From a virus, in IMG/VR virus record IMGVR_UViG_3300027905_000001, positions 15,362 through 79,361 of that record: a stretch of 64,000 bases of DNA; one strand, given 5' to 3'. Under the pieces are notes generated by a model. The model searched no databases, was not told where the DNA came from, and was given only the letters and a program-made list of their open reading frames with translations. A program made the position numbers and the translations under genes. Positions 6,037-63,785 of this stretch are shown in pieces; position 1 is the first letter of the stretch; every line of letters starts with the position of its first letter.

Positions 6037-6086
6037 CTGGGGGTTTTCTTTACCTAAAAATACTTAATATTTATTGTCTTAATGCC

Positions 6087-6115
6087 TTGACACCACGACA
6101 TAAAAGATGTATTAT
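6087..6115 (+). promoter_or_regulatory. Sigma-A-type promoter (TTGACA-17-TATTAT)
   Basis: Shares CTTGACACCAYGAYATAA with the 4823 region. Confidence 0.5.
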
Positions 6116-7057: not shown

Positions 7058-7318
7058 ATGTCTAATGAGGATGACGTTATGTTTTTCAAAATAGCAAAGG
7101 TTAAAGCCGCTATCAGCAGGGTCCTAGACGGGTGCGTAAACGAGTTGCCGGATATCCAGTTTGGATGGAGCGGATCAGTTATCGAGGTTTATTTATCCGG
7201 CGGTAATTATCAAGTCCGCAACCTTATCGAGTCCCATTTTGTAAATAGCAGGAGGTATAAAGGCGTTACAATTACAAACAACGACACCAAAAAGCGTATC
7301 AGCTTTATTTTAAATTAA
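7058..7318 (+). CDS. Hypothetical protein
   Basis: Track ORF. Confidence 0.45.
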   Translation: MSNEDDVMFFKIAKVKAAISRVLDGCVNELPDIQFGWSGSVIEVYLSGGNYQVRNLIESHFVNSRRYKGVTITNNDTKKRISFILN

Positions 7319-15345: not shown

Positions 15346-15858
15346 TTAAAAATCTCCATATAATTCAAGATAGTCTAAAACTACACCACCACACTGACAA
15401 ACAACATTAAATCCATCAAACTCGCTAATTGGTATACTCTTCCTTCCTCCTGAGAGTGCATCATTCCAAAACCGCATGAGCTCATCTAGTTCCAGCCTGT
15501 AGATTTTATACTTGGTTGTCATTTCGATGAGTAGGAAGGATGTTCCGCCTTGAGCCTGCCAATTCTTTAGAAATTCAATTTGATGTGGTTCGATGTTGGA
15601 TAAAGGGAATCGTTTTTGATCGTGGCATTGTTTGGCATCAAAGGCGACAGGTGCTCGTCCTTTTACTACTCCAATGTAATCTATTGTTGATTTTTCGCTT
15701 GGATAAGCTGACGTAACTTTTCCTTTTGACCAAATAACTTTCCAAGGAACCCAAACTTTTTGGATAAGAGCATCACCTTTGGCTTGGTATTGCTCGTTGG
15801 CATGTTCGATAAGTTGCTCTAGCCCCTTACCCCTATTAGCGTATAGCGTATTACTCAC
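15346..15858 (-). CDS. recU: Holliday-junction resolvase RecU
   Basis: ANRGKGLEQLIEHAN..., DYIGVVKG...FDAK, FPLSNIEPHQIEFL, GGRKSIP match RecU conserved blocks. Confidence 0.7.
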   Translation of the reverse strand: MSNTLYANRGKGLEQLIEHANEQYQAKGDALIQKVWVPWKVIWSKGKVTSAYPSEKSTIDYIGVVKGRAPVAFDAKQCHDQKRFPLSNIEPHQIEFLKNWQAQGGTSFLLIEMTTKYKIYRLELDELMRFWNDALSGGRKSIPISEFDGFNVVCQCGGVVLDYLELYGDF

Positions 15859-55418: not shown

Positions 55419-55871
55419 TTATTGAACCATAACAGCTACCGTAGCAACAAAATTACCGTCAACGGTTGCAATCATCACATCGACCGTACCTATCGCTACA
55501 GCAGATATTAACCCTGAACTCGACACAGTTGCAATAGCTGTATTTGTACTGATATAAATTAACCCTTGATTGGTTGCATTGGTAGGCGTAACAACAGGTG
55601 TAAGTTGTTGTGTCGTGCCATCTGCGATTGTAAATGTTGGAGGGGAAACGCTTACGCCCGTTACTGGCACTGTCGCTACTTCTGCATAATTACCGCTTTG
55701 GTAATCTACGCCTATTTTAAAAACGTCTAAAGCAGTAGGCAGGGTTACGAACACTCCCGAACATTGTAGGTGTATAGTTCCTGTTGGGTCAACGATAGAC
55801 GGTGTAAATGAGATTGAAGTTGTACCATTTTCGTTTGTTACTTTTTGAGTTACGTGTAAATTTACAATCAT
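55419..55871 (-). CDS. Tail-associated protein with bacterial Ig-like (Big_2) domain
   Basis: VTGVSVSPPTFTIADGTTQQLTPVVTPTNATNQ...TVSSSGLISAVAIGTV. Confidence 0.55.
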   Translation of the reverse strand: MIVNLHVTQKVTNENGTTSISFTPSIVDPTGTIHLQCSGVFVTLPTALDVFKIGVDYQSGNYAEVATVPVTGVSVSPPTFTIADGTTQQLTPVVTPTNATNQGLIYISTNTAIATVSSSGLISAVAIGTVDVMIATVDGNFVATVAVMVQ

Positions 55872-57191: not shown

Positions 57192-58127
57192 CTACCACGT
57201 CACTATAATTGCACCGTTGCCGCCAGCTACCCCATTTGTTCCTACATTGTTATTTTGACCACTCCCACCTTGCCCACCTTCCCCATAAGTATATGCTCCA
57301 TTAGCGGCATTGCCACCTAGGCCGCCTGGTGGAGTGGATACCTGATTGCCTGTTTGTCCTTGCGTAATGAGTGGGGCACCCAAACCTAGTCCGCCCACAC
57401 CTGCCGTGGATGCCGCGCCTGCCCCTGGAAGTGATTGATTTCCCCCATACGCAGTGAAGGTCAAGAAAGTTGTGCTCCCTCCAACTCCCCCAGCTGCCCC
57501 GATCCCTGTCGAGCTACCATTTCCTGCCGTTCCTCCCGCTCCAATGACACCAGTTATTACCTGTAGTGGCGTTACATGTAGCCATCCAGCCACGTAGCCC
57601 CCAGCGCCTGCTCCAGCTGCGCCCTGTGCGTATATTCCGCCTGTTGCTCCTGCCCCGCCACCTCCGCCACCGATGAGTTCAACATAAATGCAAACAATCC
57701 CGAGAGGCACGATAAATATTCCAGTAGAAGTAATTATTTGATACCCTGTATTCCCTGGCTTCGCCCATGTTCCGGGTGTTCCTGCCGTGACGCATATCCA
57801 AATAAATCCGGATTGATCGATCGCCCAGTCCCCAACTAAGAATGTTCCCGTTGTCGGCGCTCCGCTTGTAGTAGCTCCAACATATCGGCTTGTTGCCGTT
57901 GCGCCTGCTATCCCAACTGTGGAAATAGGACCGGTTATATTCCCTTCGTCAAGTGCCGCTATCCCTGATTCGATATTGTTCATATGCGCCGCTGTAAATT
58001 GCGTCCCTGCCTGTGTCGGGCTGTCATTCAGAGATAGAATTACATTGCCAGGTACACTTCCAGTTGCCGTAAATTGTCCAGGATTTGCTGATATTCTATC
58101 GAGCCAATTGGTAGGGTTATAACTCAT
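57192..58127 (-). CDS. Glycine-rich tail fibre protein
   Basis: Long GGxGxxG tracts. Confidence 0.55.
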   Translation of the reverse strand: MSYNPTNWLDRISANPGQFTATGSVPGNVILSLNDSPTQAGTQFTAAHMNNIESGIAALDEGNITGPISTVGIAGATATSRYVGATTSGAPTTGTFLVGDWAIDQSGFIWICVTAGTPGTWAKPGNTGYQIITSTGIFIVPLGIVCIYVELIGGGGGGAGATGGIYAQGAAGAGAGGYVAGWLHVTPLQVITGVIGAGGTAGNGSSTGIGAAGGVGGSTTFLTFTAYGGNQSLPGAGAASTAGVGGLGLGAPLITQGQTGNQVSTPPGGLGGNAANGAYTYGEGGQGGSGQNNNVGTNGVAGGNGAIIVTW

Positions 58128-58139
58128 ATCTTCTCCTTT

Positions 58140-58622
58140 CTAGTTGTGCCAACCCAAACCGCATATAGCTAAGTTCTGACCGCAGAATAGGGATTCCACC
58201 ATTGCGCCGGTCACTAAGTTATAAAGGGCCAACTCGTTTCCTTCAATTCGATTTGTGTCTACGTAAGAAAAGGGTTGATTAAACGTCCAAGTTGTTTTAG
58301 GTGTAATCCATCCAGGAGGAGCAATTCCATAGCAGTTAAAAAGCGCCAAGATATTACCCTCGATTCGGTTTAGGGAATCGTAGAAGTCGAGAGTGCTTCC
58401 GTCTGTGCGATTGGTTATCGTTGTTAGATTTAAAGTGTAGCCTCGTTTTTGCAGGAGTGCCGCGATAGAGACAATATTACTTTCTATATAATTCCAGTCG
58501 GAGTAGTTGAAATAATCTTGAGCCGTCCAAGGAGTGCCGGGAACGTGTCCTCCTCCTCCTACTGATAGTACTGCATCTAATTGAGTTGTGTTTAATTGAG
58601 ATGTGTTTAGCACTTGTCCCAC
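58140..58622 (-). CDS. Tail fibre-associated protein
   Basis: Track ORF, context. Confidence 0.4.
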   Translation of the reverse strand: MGQVLNTSQLNTTQLDAVLSVGGGGHVPGTPWTAQDYFNYSDWNYIESNIVSIAALLQKRGYTLNLTTITNRTDGSTLDFYDSLNRIEGNILALFNCYGIAPPGWITPKTTWTFNQPFSYVDTNRIEGNELALYNLVTGAMVESLFCGQNLAICGLGWHN

Positions 58623-58634
58623 CTCGCACGAACG

Positions 58635-59969
58635 CTAATAAGTAGTAACCCCGTTGTTACCGCAATTACCTATTACCTCATAGTTGGTAACAGAACCACT
58701 GGCCATTGCGACTGGAGTAGCGCCTGTATATCCATTAAAACTGTTGCCTATAATAGTTACTCCAACTACATTTGTAAGATTAACCGCGTATCGGACATCG
58801 TTACTCGAATTGTCCTTATACATTTGATTGCCCGAAATAACTATTTCAGTGGAAGTATCCGTGAGCGATGCCGCCGCAATGTAAATCAAGTCATAAACCG
58901 CTCCAGACGTTCCACAATTCCTGATTATGTTATTTACAAATGATATTTTATGATTAGTGGCACCTGCCCAAGCGCCGATAGGTAAGTATATTGAATGTTG
59001 CTGTGCATTTTCAAAAATATTATTGGCAAATAGTAGGCAAGTAGCCCCATTTTGGATTAACAAATTATTGACTGGATTGCCATCGAAATGATTTCCAATA
59101 AACCTGCACGACCCGCCTTGGATACTAAGATTTGCGCCTGAAGATCCTATATTATTGTAGCAAAACCAAGAATCAGTAGTTCTGTATCCCCACAAAACCC
59201 CTTCGAGCGTACTAGCCTCGAAATTACAATATTGGATTCTGTTTAAATAACCGAGGTTGTTTGACGCGGTAGCATCCCAATTTAGCAACAGACTATGAAC
59301 CGTACCTTGAGTAGTAACGTTGTTAACAGTAGATTGAGACATTGTTAGGTATAGAGCAACGCCGCCATTAACAAAGGTATTGACACCGTTATTCATGTTA
59401 ATTACAAAGTTAAGCATTGCCGCATTAATCATCATAGCCGTATTCTGAAATGCGTTTATGTCTCCTACGGCTAAAAATACAGTTGCCGTTCCTGAACCCT
59501 CAAGGACTATATTTGACATCATATTAATGGGAGCGTGCAAGTTAATTGTTCCATCTAGAAAAAATAACTTACCGCCATTAGTAAGCGAACTAATAATGCC
59601 ATTAATCACAGCGGTGTCAGTTGTACCATCTAAAATGTAGTTAGCCCTACTCTTCTGCAAAGAATTAGAAGGAGCGATAAGTATCGCCCCTCCGTTCTGT
59701 AATTCTAAAATATGGCCTGATGTTAATAATAATTGAACCTTCGTTCCACTGGCAAACGTTTGCGCCGCGGTGCCCTGTTGCGCACGATTAATCCCCGTTG
59801 CTGTTACCTCGACTATCTCACAGGCGCTAGGGCTGTTAAGCGGGTCTACCCCAATGGTTAGATAGTAGGGATACGCTAAGGAAGGGCTTGTTGTCAGCGT
59901 CAAGGTCGTCTGTGATGAAGTCATAGCGGAGGATAGAGTTGTTGAAAAGTTGTTGGCTACTGAATGCAC
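58635..59969 (-). CDS. Tailspike-like protein with right-handed beta-helix (pectate-lyase fold) pattern
   Basis: Periodic N/G/I-rich repeats (NNIIRNCGTSG, IGNSFNGYTG). Confidence 0.6.
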   Translation of the reverse strand: MHSVANNFSTTLSSAMTSSQTTLTLTTSPSLAYPYYLTIGVDPLNSPSACEIVEVTATGINRAQQGTAAQTFASGTKVQLLLTSGHILELQNGGAILIAPSNSLQKSRANYILDGTTDTAVINGIISSLTNGGKLFFLDGTINLHAPINMMSNIVLEGSGTATVFLAVGDINAFQNTAMMINAAMLNFVINMNNGVNTFVNGGVALYLTMSQSTVNNVTTQGTVHSLLLNWDATASNNLGYLNRIQYCNFEASTLEGVLWGYRTTDSWFCYNNIGSSGANLSIQGGSCRFIGNHFDGNPVNNLLIQNGATCLLFANNIFENAQQHSIYLPIGAWAGATNHKISFVNNIIRNCGTSGAVYDLIYIAAASLTDTSTEIVISGNQMYKDNSSNDVRYAVNLTNVVGVTIIGNSFNGYTGATPVAMASGSVTNYEVIGNCGNNGVTTY

Positions 59970-59987: not shown

Positions 59988-60440
59988 TTAAGTTAGCGTT
60001 ACGGTAAGTTGACCAGCGTTGAAGGTTAGAGTTTCGCCTGTTGTTATGGTTGTTGAAGACAGGGTAGAGTTCACTTGGCCAAAAGCAATCAACGTACCCG
60101 TACTAAATATTCCCCAATACGTAACAGGAGCATTCCAGTTCGAAGTGGCAACAGGGAAACTGATAGCGTTTTTGTTTGATACACTAGCGGGACTTACCGG
60201 ATTACCGCCAGTCCAATTTGGGTTCCAATTTGCTTGAGTGCCTGGGCAAGATACTCTGGCATAACCGCCCGTAGTTGGTTCGTTGAAATTCCAAGCTTCG
60301 TAAGTCGGTACTGGTGTTGTGGTTGATAGTGCTATACATAGAGTGGGTGGTGTTAAGGTAAACTCTTCAGCGTATATAACATTATCACTATTAAAAAATG
60401 ACCCCAAAAACATAACATCCAAGGTGGCTGCAAAGCCCAT
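59988..60440 (-). CDS. Tail fibre-like protein
   Basis: ATG after AAGAAGGGGTG. Confidence 0.45.
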   Translation of the reverse strand: MGFAATLDVMFLGSFFNSDNVIYAEEFTLTPPTLCIALSTTTPVPTYEAWNFNEPTTGGYARVSCPGTQANWNPNWTGGNPVSPASVSNKNAISFPVATSNWNAPVTYWGIFSTGTLIAFGQVNSTLSSTTITTGETLTFNAGQLTVTLT

Positions 60441-60659
60441 TTAATTTCACCCCTTCTTAATTAAATCGTTGATCCTGAATTCGTTAGGCTACTCACGGAA
60501 TTAATTGACCCCGATCCGTAGACGGTTGAATATACCACAGGCGCGGTAACCGTAACTAAACAAGCACCTGCGTAACCACCATCAAAAGTATGAACGCCAA
60601 CTGATACGACCCCGGCACTAACCGCTGCAAAATGGCATTTATATACATCCTTTCTTGGA
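60441..60659 (-). other. Non-initiated coding relic: extra Big_2 C-terminus plus YGSGSINSVSSLTNSGS repeat in +1 frame
   Basis: Translates to ...HTFDGGYAGACLVTVTAPVVYSTVYGSGSINSVSSLTNSGSTI, matching internal repeats of the 1041-aa protein. Confidence 0.5.
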
Positions 60660-63600
60660 CTAAATTACTGTAACGGTAGTTCCCGCGGAGGGACTTCCTC
60701 CATAGGCTAGTACGTATACAAAACAATAAGCTCCGCTAGTTCCAACAGCGGTTATCAATCCCGTACTCGACACCGTTGCTATGGATGTATTCGAGCTTAA
60801 ATAGGTTACATTTTGATTAGTGGCATAGGTAGGGGCTATGGCATAGGTCATTTGACTTGTACTTCCATAGGAGAGGCTAATATTTGAAGATGAGGTAAGG
60901 GTTATCCCTGTTACTTGAGCACCTACATTTGCCGAACTAGAAGCAGTATATCCTCCGTCTGAGGTTCTAACCGTTATTGAAGGAATACCTGTCTTACCTC
61001 CTACTGCTGTCACGAATCCTGTGCTTGATACTGTTGCCACAGTAGTATCTGTACTCGACCACGTCACGCTTTGATTTGTAGCGTTCGACGGGGATACTGT
61101 AGCTGTATACTGCCCTGTGTTCGGACTACCGTTACACACTAGATTGATATTGGAAGGACTTATGGTTACTCCCGTTACTGAAATAGTAGCCGCACTGACC
61201 GTAACATAGCAATTGCTATTAAATCCACCATCATATGATCTTACATATACATTTACGGAGCCGGGGCTTACAGCCGTTATTAATCCTGAGCTGGATACAG
61301 AAGCTATGGCTGAATTATCAGTAGTGTAATAAACCGAAGGATTGGTTGCGTTAGAGGGTGTTAAGGTGTAATAAAGCTGCTGTGTTCCCCCGACAGTTAG
61401 ATTCGCAGATCCCGGGGTTACGCTTACCCATGTTACTGGAATGTTTATACTAGAGCCTGAATTTGATAGAGAACCAAAGGAAGATATTGAACCCGAACCG
61501 TAAACAGGTACTACAGCCGCGCTCACAGTAACATAACAATTACAATTAAATCCGCCATCATTAGCCCTCGCATACACATTTACCGAACCAGTTCCAACAG
61601 CGGTTATCAATCCCGTACTCGATACCGTTGCTATAGCTGAATTATCGGTTGTATAGTATATAGTTGGGTTAGTTGCATTAGATGGAGTAACCGTAGTTGT
61701 TAGTTGCTGAGTGCCCCCTACTGTAAGATTTGAAGTAGCTGGAGTTACCGTAACACCTGTAACATGGATATTGGTCGATATGCTAGAACCGCTGTTAGTT
61801 AAACTACCCACGGAACTAATGGAGCCAGAACCATATACCGTACTACTGGCGCCGTTATCAACTAAACTACTCACGGCGCTAATTGATCCTGATCCATATA
61901 CCACGTTACCCGCTCCGTTATCAACCAAACTGCTAGTTGAGCTTATTGAACCTGATCCATTAATAGTCCTAGCTCCCCATCCCTTACCGTTTAGCGTCCC
62001 TGACAGAGTTCCGTTAAACCTAAATTCCTGCCGAATAATCTTCGCTTGCTTCTGAGCTGTTGCATATTGCGAATCCCAAAACATTACGTCTCCGCACTCA
62101 AGGGATGGGTCCATCCAGCTTTCAACTTCGTACAGATAAACATTACTACATTCGGCGGCATACCAATTTAGTATATTTGTCGCCATGGTTGCATCTGTGA
62201 CAAGAGGGTTATCGAGATCAACTTCATTACTGGGTTGGCTTCCCGAATTATTGACAATTTGCTGAATGGATGTACCCGTGATCGTAAGTCCTGAAATGGA
62301 TATACCGACTGAACCGGACCCGGTTATAGTTAACTGGGCTGCATTGGCGTAATACGTGGCGCCTACAAGCGTTCCGCCCGTTATCGTACAGTTGCCAGGC
62401 TCCGCACATGACGCAGGAGTAGCAGGAGTGGTATAAGTTACCCATGTTGTGATAGTGCTGTTAACTGTCACGTTGCCCGTATAAACATTACTTACTGCAC
62501 TATCCACAGTGTTCGAGTAGATATTCAGCGTAAAGTAATTGTAAGGGTCCTGAATTGCAATCTTGGGATAGGTTTCTTGCATAGACAACGTTAGTTCTTC
62601 TGTGTAAGGCATCGTATTTAATGGCATCTGACTTGCCGATTGTCTAATATGCAGGACATTGTACCTATCCACATAAACAACCGCCATGCCCGCCTGAGCA
62701 ATATACATTAAGGCGTCATGGTGAGACATAGCCGATAGCACTCCGCTCGTACTGATACCTTGTAGTGCCGTGTCGATCTGATAGGCTATTTTCATGCCCG
62801 CCTGAGACTGAAAATCCGTAATTACTGCCACGGCTAATGCATAAAGCGTTATGGGGCTGCCTGTGTATCCAAAGGCATAATAGGTTGTTCCATCGGCAAT
62901 GTCGAGCAGGTCCCTTGCGTAGAGGGTCGATGATAGATAGTTGGCATCGTTTAACCAGTTATATAGATAGAAAGTACCCAATGGCACTGTCTCTGTTGCT
63001 CCATTGGCGTATATGAGGTTAAGCGATGGTTTAAGAGGCTGTTTCTTCTGCAAATTACCAAGATAGAGATTGAAATTATTTAAGTTGTTGGCAATGCTCG
63101 CATGAGCCTCTTTAGGCGGAGCGCTGTTGCCTAATGGGTCAAGTTCTTCTAACACATCAAGATCAAAGAGGTTGTTGCCTGTCCAGAGAAATTGTTCTCC
63201 GAATAATACCTCGGATAAATGTACACGGCGCAAGGGAGCGTTCGTGCTGTTAAAAGTAATAACTACTTGAACGATGTTATTAAGTTGTTGCGAGAAGAAG
63301 TAGTTCGCCGATGTTGGATTGACGTTATAGGTGACTTGATTAGAGCTACTATCGGTAGTCACAATCTGAATTGAATTGCAATAATCCCCAGTGAGTGGGG
63401 AAAACACGAAGGTTAGCCCAAGGCTTGTAAACGGCGCTGATTGCGTCAAGGTAAGCACTGGAGGTGTGGCGAAGTTACCGTTTGCATCCGAGAGGACCGC
63501 GCTCCACCATCCGACCGAATCCGATGTATCAACATCTGTCGGCTTTGGGGGCGTAAAAAAACTACCGTCCAAAAGGAGGTAGTTGTTCTCTTCACTCATA

Positions 63601-63785
63601 TATTTACGGATTTGAGATAGGCCATCTGTGACTTCTGCAACGCCTCCTACGCCCGCTATTGATGTGGCTGTTGGTGTGCAGTTATTTTGTGCTGCCACAT
63701 CCACCATGTCGAATTCAACGAGCGCCGACATTGTGCGTGGGAAAGCAGAAATAGAGTTGTTGAAGTTTTGAGATACGTTTAGCAC
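60660..63785 (-). CDS. Large tail protein (receptor-binding / host-specificity candidate) with four Big_2 domains
   Basis: 1041 aa; four Big_2-like units (TVGGTQQL...TPSNATNP...DNSAIATVSS.GLITAV); tandem YGSGSISS repeats. Confidence 0.65.
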   Translation of the reverse strand: MLNVSQNFNNSISAFPRTMSALVEFDMVDVAAQNNCTPTATSIAGVGGVAEVTDGLSQIRKYMSEENNYLLLDGSFFTPPKPTDVDTSDSVGWWSAVLSDANGNFATPPVLTLTQSAPFTSLGLTFVFSPLTGDYCNSIQIVTTDSSSNQVTYNVNPTSANYFFSQQLNNIVQVVITFNSTNAPLRRVHLSEVLFGEQFLWTGNNLFDLDVLEELDPLGNSAPPKEAHASIANNLNNFNLYLGNLQKKQPLKPSLNLIYANGATETVPLGTFYLYNWLNDANYLSSTLYARDLLDIADGTTYYAFGYTGSPITLYALAVAVITDFQSQAGMKIAYQIDTALQGISTSGVLSAMSHHDALMYIAQAGMAVVYVDRYNVLHIRQSASQMPLNTMPYTEELTLSMQETYPKIAIQDPYNYFTLNIYSNTVDSAVSNVYTGNVTVNSTITTWVTYTTPATPASCAEPGNCTITGGTLVGATYYANAAQLTITGSGSVGISISGLTITGTSIQQIVNNSGSQPSNEVDLDNPLVTDATMATNILNWYAAECSNVYLYEVESWMDPSLECGDVMFWDSQYATAQKQAKIIRQEFRFNGTLSGTLNGKGWGARTINGSGSISSTSSLVDNGAGNVVYGSGSISAVSSLVDNGASSTVYGSGSISSVGSLTNSGSSISTNIHVTGVTVTPATSNLTVGGTQQLTTTVTPSNATNPTIYYTTDNSAIATVSSTGLITAVGTGSVNVYARANDGGFNCNCYVTVSAAVVPVYGSGSISSFGSLSNSGSSINIPVTWVSVTPGSANLTVGGTQQLYYTLTPSNATNPSVYYTTDNSAIASVSSSGLITAVSPGSVNVYVRSYDGGFNSNCYVTVSAATISVTGVTISPSNINLVCNGSPNTGQYTATVSPSNATNQSVTWSSTDTTVATVSSTGFVTAVGGKTGIPSITVRTSDGGYTASSSANVGAQVTGITLTSSSNISLSYGSTSQMTYAIAPTYATNQNVTYLSSNTSIATVSSTGLITAVGTSGAYCFVYVLAYGGSPSAGTTVTVI

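Follow-up and report, generated by a model that had tools for sequence, protein, structure and literature searches.

An out-of-frame Big_2 remnant behind the stop of a repeat-rich phage tail gene and its setting among related Desulfosporosinus loci

Results

Gene organisation at the tail locus

The stretch of DNA analysed in the present study (hereafter the window) comprises 64,000 nucleotides (nt) and corresponds to positions 15,362 to 79,361 of the IMG/VR virus record IMGVR_UViG_3300027905_000001. Near its end lies a gene for a tail protein of 1041 amino acids (aa), which is followed on the same strand by a gene for a Gp80-like fibre protein. The 219 nt between the TAG stop of the former and the ATG of the latter (60440) are the subject of this report, as they hold, in the +1 reading frame, part of a Big_2 domain and one copy of a repeat that also occur in the tail protein itself. 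The features of the locus, in the direction of transcription, are as follows (pLDDT, predicted local distance difference test; SD, Shine-Dalgarno):

63785..60660, minus strand: tail gene, 1041 aa, GTG start, TAG stop at 60662-60660
61974..63785, minus strand: conserved N-terminal part of about 604 aa, ending in ...TLNGKGWG (homologues, PHROG 13879)
61770..61958, minus strand: three tandem 21-aa repeats, fused in frame to the N-terminal part (Tandem Repeats Finder, alignment to the repeats of relatives)
61515..61763, minus strand: Big_2 unit 1 (Pfam)
61446..61505, minus strand: fourth 21-aa repeat (VYGSGSISSFGSLSNSGSSI)
61188..61439, minus strand: Big_2 unit 2 (Pfam)
60921..61178, minus strand: Big_2 unit 3 (Pfam; AlphaFold, pLDDT about 95)
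60663..60914, minus strand: Big_2 unit 4 (partial Pfam match and AlphaFold)
60660..60662, minus strand: TAG stop of the 1041-aa open reading frame (ORF), context GTA ATT TAG TCC
60629..60656, minus strand: ghost gene start, consisting of the SD-like AAGAAAGGA, a 9-nt spacer and ATG CCA TTT(T) (27-mer scan)
60464..60628, minus strand, +1 frame: relic of 55 codons, the last 31 or so aa of a Big_2 unit and one 21-aa repeat (AAVSAG...NSGSTI)
60461..60463, minus strand: TAA closing the relic frame, where the displaced allele presumably stopped, separated by 2 nt from the real ribosome-binding site downstream
59988..60458, minus strand: functional ribosome-binding site (AAGAAGGGGTGA) and Gp80-like fibre gene, 150 aa (Pfam PF23140 Gp80, E = 4e-15)

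The tail protein is composed of the N-terminal part, three 21-aa repeats, Big_2 unit 1, one further repeat and Big_2 units 2, 3 and 4, the last of which runs up to the stop. The four Big_2-like units and the tandem repeats named in a preliminary description of this DNA were both recovered: Pfam finds four Big_2 (PF02368) stretches (E = 8.6e-47; 157 bits against a gathering cut-off of 22.8), and Tandem Repeats Finder reports a period of 63 with 2.6 copies for the GSGSIS...SL.N.G repeat, of which three tandem copies start near aa 610, 631 and 652 and a fourth lies near aa 761, after unit 1. No family corresponding to this repeat module exists in Pfam or PHROG. The N-terminal part belongs to PHROG 13879, a group of function unknown to PHROG, and its 600 aa gave no match by sequence in Pfam or PDB. 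Its AlphaFold model is poor (pLDDT 52), and a CBM32/discoidin-like sandwich proposed by weak Foldseek matches to this model was not relied on. In phage proteins, Ig-like domains mostly serve as accessory adhesins; the label 'receptor-binding protein', which the 1041-aa product had been given, derives from position and domain content and is putative. The neighbour of the gene in the window is a DUF6711-like gene, of which only the end is visible before the window stops.

The position of the stop is backed by a protein at NCBI (SPF51250.1, Candidatus Desulfosporosinus infrequens) that is identical over 1041 aa, has the same stop and differs only in the translation of the GTG start. It stands on a contig of 79 kilobases (kb), the JGI copy on one of 123 kb, and it supports the stop, not the relic DNA itself.

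With regard to the last Big_2 unit, the Pfam match covers only profile positions 2-57 of 79, and the last third of the unit (SGAYCFVYVLAYGGSPSAGTTVTVI) is atypical in sequence. In an AlphaFold model of units 3 and 4, built with 35 homologues, both form Ig-like sandwiches (mean pLDDT 90.6), and the final strands of unit 4 lie at model residues 152-159 and 165-172, reaching the last residue with a pLDDT of 74-81. Unit 4 is hence predicted to be a complete Ig fold up to the stop, to which the fragment downstream would be redundant. Units 4 and 1 share a stretch of 45 nt with a single mismatch (IATVSSTGLITAVGT; 60738-60782 and 61590-61634), the units being elsewhere about 55-60% identical, and this tract looks like a point of gene conversion or crossover.

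The fragment behind the stop

Behind the TAG the +1 frame is open over 67 codons (60664-60464) up to the TAA at 60463-60461, and its translation, which includes the peptide stretches AAVSAGVVSVGVHTFDGGY and AAVSAGVVSVGVHTFDGGYAGACLVTVTAPVVY, reads FSPRKDVYKCHFAAVSAGVVSVGVHTFDGGYAGACLVTVTAPVVYSTVYGSGSINSVSSLTNSGSTI, followed by the stop. A usable start is lacking, since the first ATG, GTG or TTG of this frame, a GTG, comes only after about 43 codons. While the first 12 codons are junction sequence and not Big_2, residues 13-67 align to the C-terminal third of unit 1 and the repeat that follows it, with a score of 122 against 34 +/- 6 in 500 shuffles (z = 14); the same kind of test against unit 2 gave z = 6.9. 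At the DNA level, identity between the relic and the region of unit 1 amounts to 65-67%. A phmmer search with the 55 relic residues against 1.84 billion representative proteins retrieved 217 proteins at E <= 0.001, mostly matched in several stretches by relic residues 2-35 and belonging to long Ig-repeat proteins, four of them already known carriers of PF02368. The Pfam Big_2 profile gave no match at E <= 10 to the 67-aa peptide alone, because no more than some 31 of the 79 profile positions are represented in the relic.

The homology of the relic to a Big_2 C-terminus and repeat is therefore confirmed far beyond chance, and the preliminary statement that the 219 base pairs after the stop encode, out of frame and without a start, such a C-terminus plus repeat holds. 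Its description as an extra Ig-like unit is not supported if a complete fifth unit is meant, as only about one third of a Big_2 domain is there: the relic begins (AAVSAG) at the position equivalent to ITAVGT of unit 4, so the 5' two-thirds of a domain are missing. In sum, the fragment has the orientation of the tail gene, lies directly downstream of it and is homologous to the 3' end of the functional gene, and it is devoid of a 5' part and of a start.

The DNA between stop and relic reads TAG TCC AAGAAAGGA TGTATATAA ATG CCA TTT T GCA GCG GTT and so resembles the beginning of a gene. The 27-mer of this ghost start was scanned over 768,898 positions, that is the window and 41 related loci on both strands. 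The best matches other than to itself were starts of Gp80-like genes, namely those in L001/L013 (20 of 27 positions; ATG CCA TTC, MPFTYY...), followed with 19 of 27 each by the window's own Gp80-like start at 60458 and that in L018/L035-37, and only two unrelated gene starts reached 19 of 27. The ghost and the real junction of the window are alike from ATT TAR via ribosome-binding site and ATG to TTT GCA GC (ATG GGC TTT GCA GCC in the real one); past this point the real copy continues into the Gp80-like protein (MGFAATLD...), whereas the ghost copy continues into Big_2 (AAVSAG...). Behind the stop of the 1041-aa ORF there thus appears to stand what is left of a Gp80-like gene start, which breaks off after some four codons and passes straight into the inner part of a Big_2 unit. 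As the ghost and the real junction match in only 19 of 27 positions, the donor would have been a diverged relative, not a recent internal duplication.

Variation at the tail locus among relatives

For the N-terminal 612 aa, 43 homologues were found, mostly 60-74% identical and nearly all of about 600 aa, in genomes of Desulfosporosinus and Desulfitobacteriaceae and in peat or soil metagenomes. The tail gene of these relatives is preceded by a gene of tape-measure size and a 120-aa DUF6711 gene, and after the conserved ...NGKGW it takes one of three courses: (a) a stop directly after GKGW, with a gene homologous to the window's 160-aa gene behind it; (b) an in-frame extension of unrelated sequence (GKGLG..TPVSPD..); or (c) GKGWP and a stop, then 140-390 codons of 21-aa repeats in the +1 frame that end in ...CGQxLTICGLxWxN-stop, and subsequently a Gp80-like gene. 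Among the homologues and the 41 loci compared, the window is the sole member with Big_2 units and the sole one with repeats fused in frame, and no relative with its Big_2 extension was found in phage, viral-contig and protein collections.

Identity to the window amounts to 55-77% in backbone genes and only 38-40% in the Gp80-like gene, and many relatives are without the extension and the Gp80-like block. Judged by sequence comparison, extension and Gp80-like block behave as an optional, fast-evolving cassette. Rearrangements of further kinds were met with in single lineages. In L039 (2690-2915) and L040 (2960-3186) the tail gene ends in GKGWT and a stop, the proline codon being changed to ACT, and is followed by a +1 stub of 45 codons and a Gp80-like gene of which only the 3' end is left, apparently another deletion scar at the tail-gene locus. 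In L018 (about 7150-7200) and L035 (about 6040-6090) a copy of the terminal motif lies inside the +1 repeat array (..VLCGEDVAICGLGWCVNV..), which seems to indicate two extension modules stacked in frame.

The motif CGQxLxICGLxWxN-stop also ends the window's 160-aa protein (58140-58622, minus strand), as it ends all +1 repeat ORFs of the relatives (L001, L017, L018, L019, L028, L038 and L041); it is absent from the Big_2 extension and the relic of the window.

A candidate +1 frameshift in the relatives

In seven lineages (L001/L013, L017, L018/L035-37, L019, L028, L038 and L041) the tail gene ends in TGG CCY and a stop, for which TAG, TGA and TAA are all used. The regions of this type are:

L001, 7790-8980
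L017, 2350-3220
L018, 6895-7640
L019, 2930-3525
L028, 619-1500
L038, 2146-2585
L041, 1022-1825

All seven lineages have a purine-rich AAGGA or AGGGG 3 nt upstream of the CCY-stop, and the +1 frame opens only six codons before the shift point in six of them. The first ATG, GTG or TTG in this frame lies between -59 and +44 codons from the stop and is never accompanied by an SD sequence; relatives without the repeat ORF have GKGW-stop and no proline. Over the first 18 codons after the stop, the +1 frame is enriched in synonymous changes, with 22:48 compared with 10:67 in the frame of the upstream gene and 14:65 in the third frame. Gene callers mostly miss or miscall the +1 repeat ORF.

The tandem repeats of the window are homologous to these ORFs (46-49% identity), and because the window carries the repeats fused in frame, the ORF of the relatives can be read, by a Rosetta stone argument, as a C-terminal extension of the same protein. 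At 61968-61985 (minus strand) the window has TGG GGA GCT AGG, compared with TGG CCC TAG TGG in L001 and TGG CCT TAA in other relatives; five nt replace three, which puts the TAG out of frame and the repeats in frame. The fusion may accordingly have arisen by a 2-nt change (TGG CCC TAG to TGG GGA GCT AGG) that turned a frameshift-dependent extension into a fused one.

A comparable arrangement is known from the gene tsh of the Listeria phages PSA, A118 and A500, where C-terminal Ig-like extensions are made by a +1 frameshift at CCC_UGA, and from the autoregulatory +1 frameshift of prfB (release factor 2), in which an SD-like element is followed after 3 nt by CUU_UGA (PMC5009743). The elements of such sites recur in the relatives: the proline codon before the stop is conserved, an SD-like run lies 3 nt ahead of the CCY-stop, and the +1 ORF behind it is long and has no start. 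It is about an even chance, to judge from these elements, that the tail-tip family of the relatives makes its 21-aa-repeat extension by a PSA/prfB-like +1 frameshift (AAGGA/AGGGG, 3 nt, CCY-stop), and the SD-like run may be a by-product of the conserved G-K-G codons.

Discussion

Origin of the fragment

Taken together, we regard the relic as most probably the outcome of one illegitimate crossover between two related Desulfosporosinus prophages, by which the tail gene gained a new end and the old 3' end was left behind as dead DNA. Both prophages, here called X and Y, would have carried the variable cassette, that is a C-terminal repeat/Big_2 extension of the tail-tip protein and then a Gp80-like fibre gene. 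In X the break would fall a little way into the Gp80-like gene, near codon 4-5 (ATG CCA TTT GCA GC), and in Y within the last Big_2 unit (...ACA GC|G GTT AGT GCC...), with (G)CAGC as the microhomology shared by both at the join. From X would stem the complete tail gene with unit 4, the TAG, a ribosome-binding site and ATG CCA TTT; Y would have supplied the final third of a Big_2 unit, now orphaned, with the terminal repeat and its TAA, and behind these its own ribosome-binding site and intact Gp80-like gene. Between the intact genes such an event would leave a duplication-like remnant of 200 nt, made up of X's ghost start and Y's orphaned gene end, in which the +1 offset would be a one-in-three accident of the join. 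An allele of type X would read ...TVTVI-stop, AAGAAAGGA...ATG CCA TTT and on into a full Gp80-like gene; one of type Y would end in a full Big_2 unit plus ...VYGSGSINSVSSLTNSGSTI and a stop, directly before ATG GGC TTT GCA GCC.

The crossover is also supported by the way the relic frame closes: its TAA lies 2 nt ahead of the real ribosome-binding site, where a genuine gene would be expected to end. That a single crossover at this microhomology sufficed is something we infer from the junction, and since the relic has neither a start nor the N-terminus of a domain, it is not expected to be made. The lack of an internal stop and the DNA identity of 65-67% to the unit 1 region suggest that the event was not ancient. 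The scar is of a kind that is ordinary in phage tail genes.

Several observations weigh against this account. No parent allele of type X or Y was found in phage, viral-contig and protein collections, so donor and crossover point are deduced: near-identical phage DNA to the window region was not found; tblastn against GenBank phages returned generic Big_2 matches of at most 41% identity; the extension used as protein query against viral contigs and a set of 5.8 billion proteins returned only generic Ig-repeat proteins (at most 48%); the relic peptide gave no match in a word-indexed search, nor did the back-translated DGGYAGACLVTVT pattern in viral contigs; and the phmmer search described above, with its many Big_2 proteins, yielded no parent allele and no identity above 51%. 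A clean join at the microhomology would have left TTT at the junction, yet the sequence there is TTTT, so that an extra step or another breakpoint is needed. The absence of stops from the 55 relic codons would also fit continued translation. Finally, the 45-nt tract shared by units 1 and 4 stops exactly at the onset of the atypical third of unit 4, and a second, homologous crossover (patch replacement) could have taken place there.

Among other explanations, recoding at the stop of the window deserves attention, in which some ribosomes would slip from AUU to UUU at AUU_UAG and produce an isoform of 1107 aa ending with an extra repeat. The +1 frame indeed opens at the codon overlapping the stop, remains open for 67 codons and ends just before the next gene; the relatives, to go by their sequences, seem to add their repeats by a +1 shift at a stop, and phages are known to make Ig-like extensions by frameshifting (PMC5009743). 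Compared with the sites of tsh and prfB, however, the stop at 60662 has the UAG in the A site and the open +1 frame and lacks both a shift-prone P-site codon (CCC_N, CUU_U) and a stimulator. Its P-site codon is AUU, not CCY, and re-pairing on UUU would entail a U:U mismatch at the first position by codon-anticodon rules; the upstream sequence, GUUACAGUA, is without an SD-like element at a distance of 3 nt, and downstream no RNA structure was seen (fold z = 0.16). Moreover, such a product would add to unit 4, which is already complete in the model, 12 junction residues encoded by the ghost ribosome-binding site and then no more than a third of an Ig domain. Recoding at this stop is accordingly very improbable, and we think it just as doubtful that the relic of the window is still translated in any way. 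Equally slight is the chance of a sequencing or assembly indel, by which ATTTAG would really be ATTAG, or the TTTT at 60629-60632 really TTT, the latter giving a 59-aa ORF (MPFAAVSAG...STI) downstream of the ghost ribosome-binding site. At each of the two points the sequence is a short run of T, where a change of a single base would join the reading frame of the fragment to that of the main ORF or of the ghost ATG; short-read sequencing, however, is not prone to errors in runs of three or four T, the identical NCBI product with the same stop comes from another contig record (79 kb vs 123 kb), and a correction would still leave a partial domain and a ghost gene start, so that the interpretation as a scar would stand.

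An internal deletion, in which an ancestor with five units lost the first two-thirds of unit 5 and thereby also acquired the stop, would require no foreign DNA, and it can draw on the near-identical 45-nt tract of units 1 and 4 as a sign that units recombine internally and on the deletions known at this locus in L039/L040. It is nevertheless improbable, for a deletion cannot create an array of SD, spacer and ATG-CCA-TTT that matches starts of Gp80-like genes, and it leaves the last third of unit 4, complete in fold and atypical in sequence, unexplained. Hardly any credit can be given to the idea of a small gene in its own right or of a regulatory element, such as a leader of the Gp80-like gene: the fragment does have a good SD and ATG in front and borders directly on the real ribosome-binding site of the gene behind it, but the frame of this ATG stops after six codons (MPFCSG-stop), no promoter, terminator, regulatory RNA or unusual RNA fold was detected in the 219 nt, and nothing similar stands before the Gp80-like genes of relatives. 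Three further candidates were rejected. An invertible or shufflon-type alternative end does not agree with a relic in the same orientation as the gene, the only inverted repeat being weak (23 nt, 74%); a diversity-generating retroelement would need a near-identical template repeat, and the direct repeats found are 63-81% identical; transcriptional slippage meets with T runs of only 3-4 nt. Of the inferences offered in the preliminary description, recent domain gain or loss or a frameshift, in keeping with modular shuffling, it is shuffling at the 3' end of the tail gene that the data favour, while a simple frameshift in a once-continuous ORF is unsupported because the domain is partial, unit 4 is predicted complete to the stop, and a ghost ribosome-binding site with ATG CCA TTT follows the stop.

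Comparison with known systems

Tail-fibre genes of P2, Mu, lambda and T-even phages are reportedly mosaics with horizontally exchanged 3' segments. As in these fibres, a conserved virion-attached N-terminus is combined in the window with a swappable C-terminal adhesion part, recombination would take place between related phages, and junctions lie at or near gene ends. Unlike them, the window keeps the old 3' end downstream together with the ghost start of a neighbour, as an out-of-register crossover would leave it, and parents were not found. Displaced 'orphan' C-terminal modules are likewise said to occur downstream of the Rhs and CdiA toxin genes. There, too, a new C-terminus is gained and the former end remains just downstream, in the same orientation, without start and 5' part and with recognisable homology. 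Those orphans, however, have immunity genes and can be re-used via homologous recombination at a conserved motif, whereas nothing suggests a re-use of the 55-codon fragment of the window, which is far shorter than a functional module.

Non-homologous recombination is described to land Ig-like extensions either in or out of frame (PMC5009743). With tsh of PSA, A118 and A500 the window has in common an out-of-frame Ig-like/repeat extension behind a structural gene, and the TGG CCY stop and +1 ORF of the relatives fit that case closely; the stop of the window differs in having neither a proline shift codon nor a stimulator, the piece behind it is part of a domain, and the real extension is fused in frame. 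The layout of prfB recurs in the AAGGA/AGGGG 3 nt before the CCY-stop of the relatives, and since the stop at 60662 is without it, this likeness holds for the relatives only. The relic is a scar, akin to mosaic tail-fibre genes and to displaced orphan C-terminal toxin modules, and it fails the tests for recoding of the PSA/prfB type.

Taken by itself the scar is of little weight, being a clean, datable case of out-of-register recombination that swaps the host-contact ends of phage tails; annotators should take it as a warning to read the 219-nt 'intergenic' stretch as what is left of a gene and not as regulatory DNA. More useful is the comparison with the relatives, as it reveals an unannotated fibre module of 21-aa repeats and, for no fewer than seven prophage lineages, a site of likely recoding, which at locus L013 is present in a cultured host, Desulfosporosinus acididurans M1. 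If the frameshift holds for these lineages, the extension exists in three states, absent, frameshift-dependent and fused, and the relic would be a further product of the recombination that moves the module.

Neighbouring genes

Beyond the Gp80-like gene the window encodes a 444-aa protein (58635-59969, minus strand) with weak PHROG matches to tail proteins and tail fibres and without a counterpart in the 41 related loci. This gene, the extension and the Gp80-like gene form a block of about 3.3 kb that is missing in close relatives such as L014. A glycine-rich protein (57192-58127, minus strand; PF21722 Gly_rich_2) is kept downstream in relatives and is up to 73% identical (L014); its gene belongs to the stable backbone flanking the variable cassette. 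An intact fifth Big_2 domain is found at the C-terminus of the product of a separate 150-aa tail-module gene (55419-55871, minus strand), whose PHROG matches are Ig-domain structural and major tail proteins.

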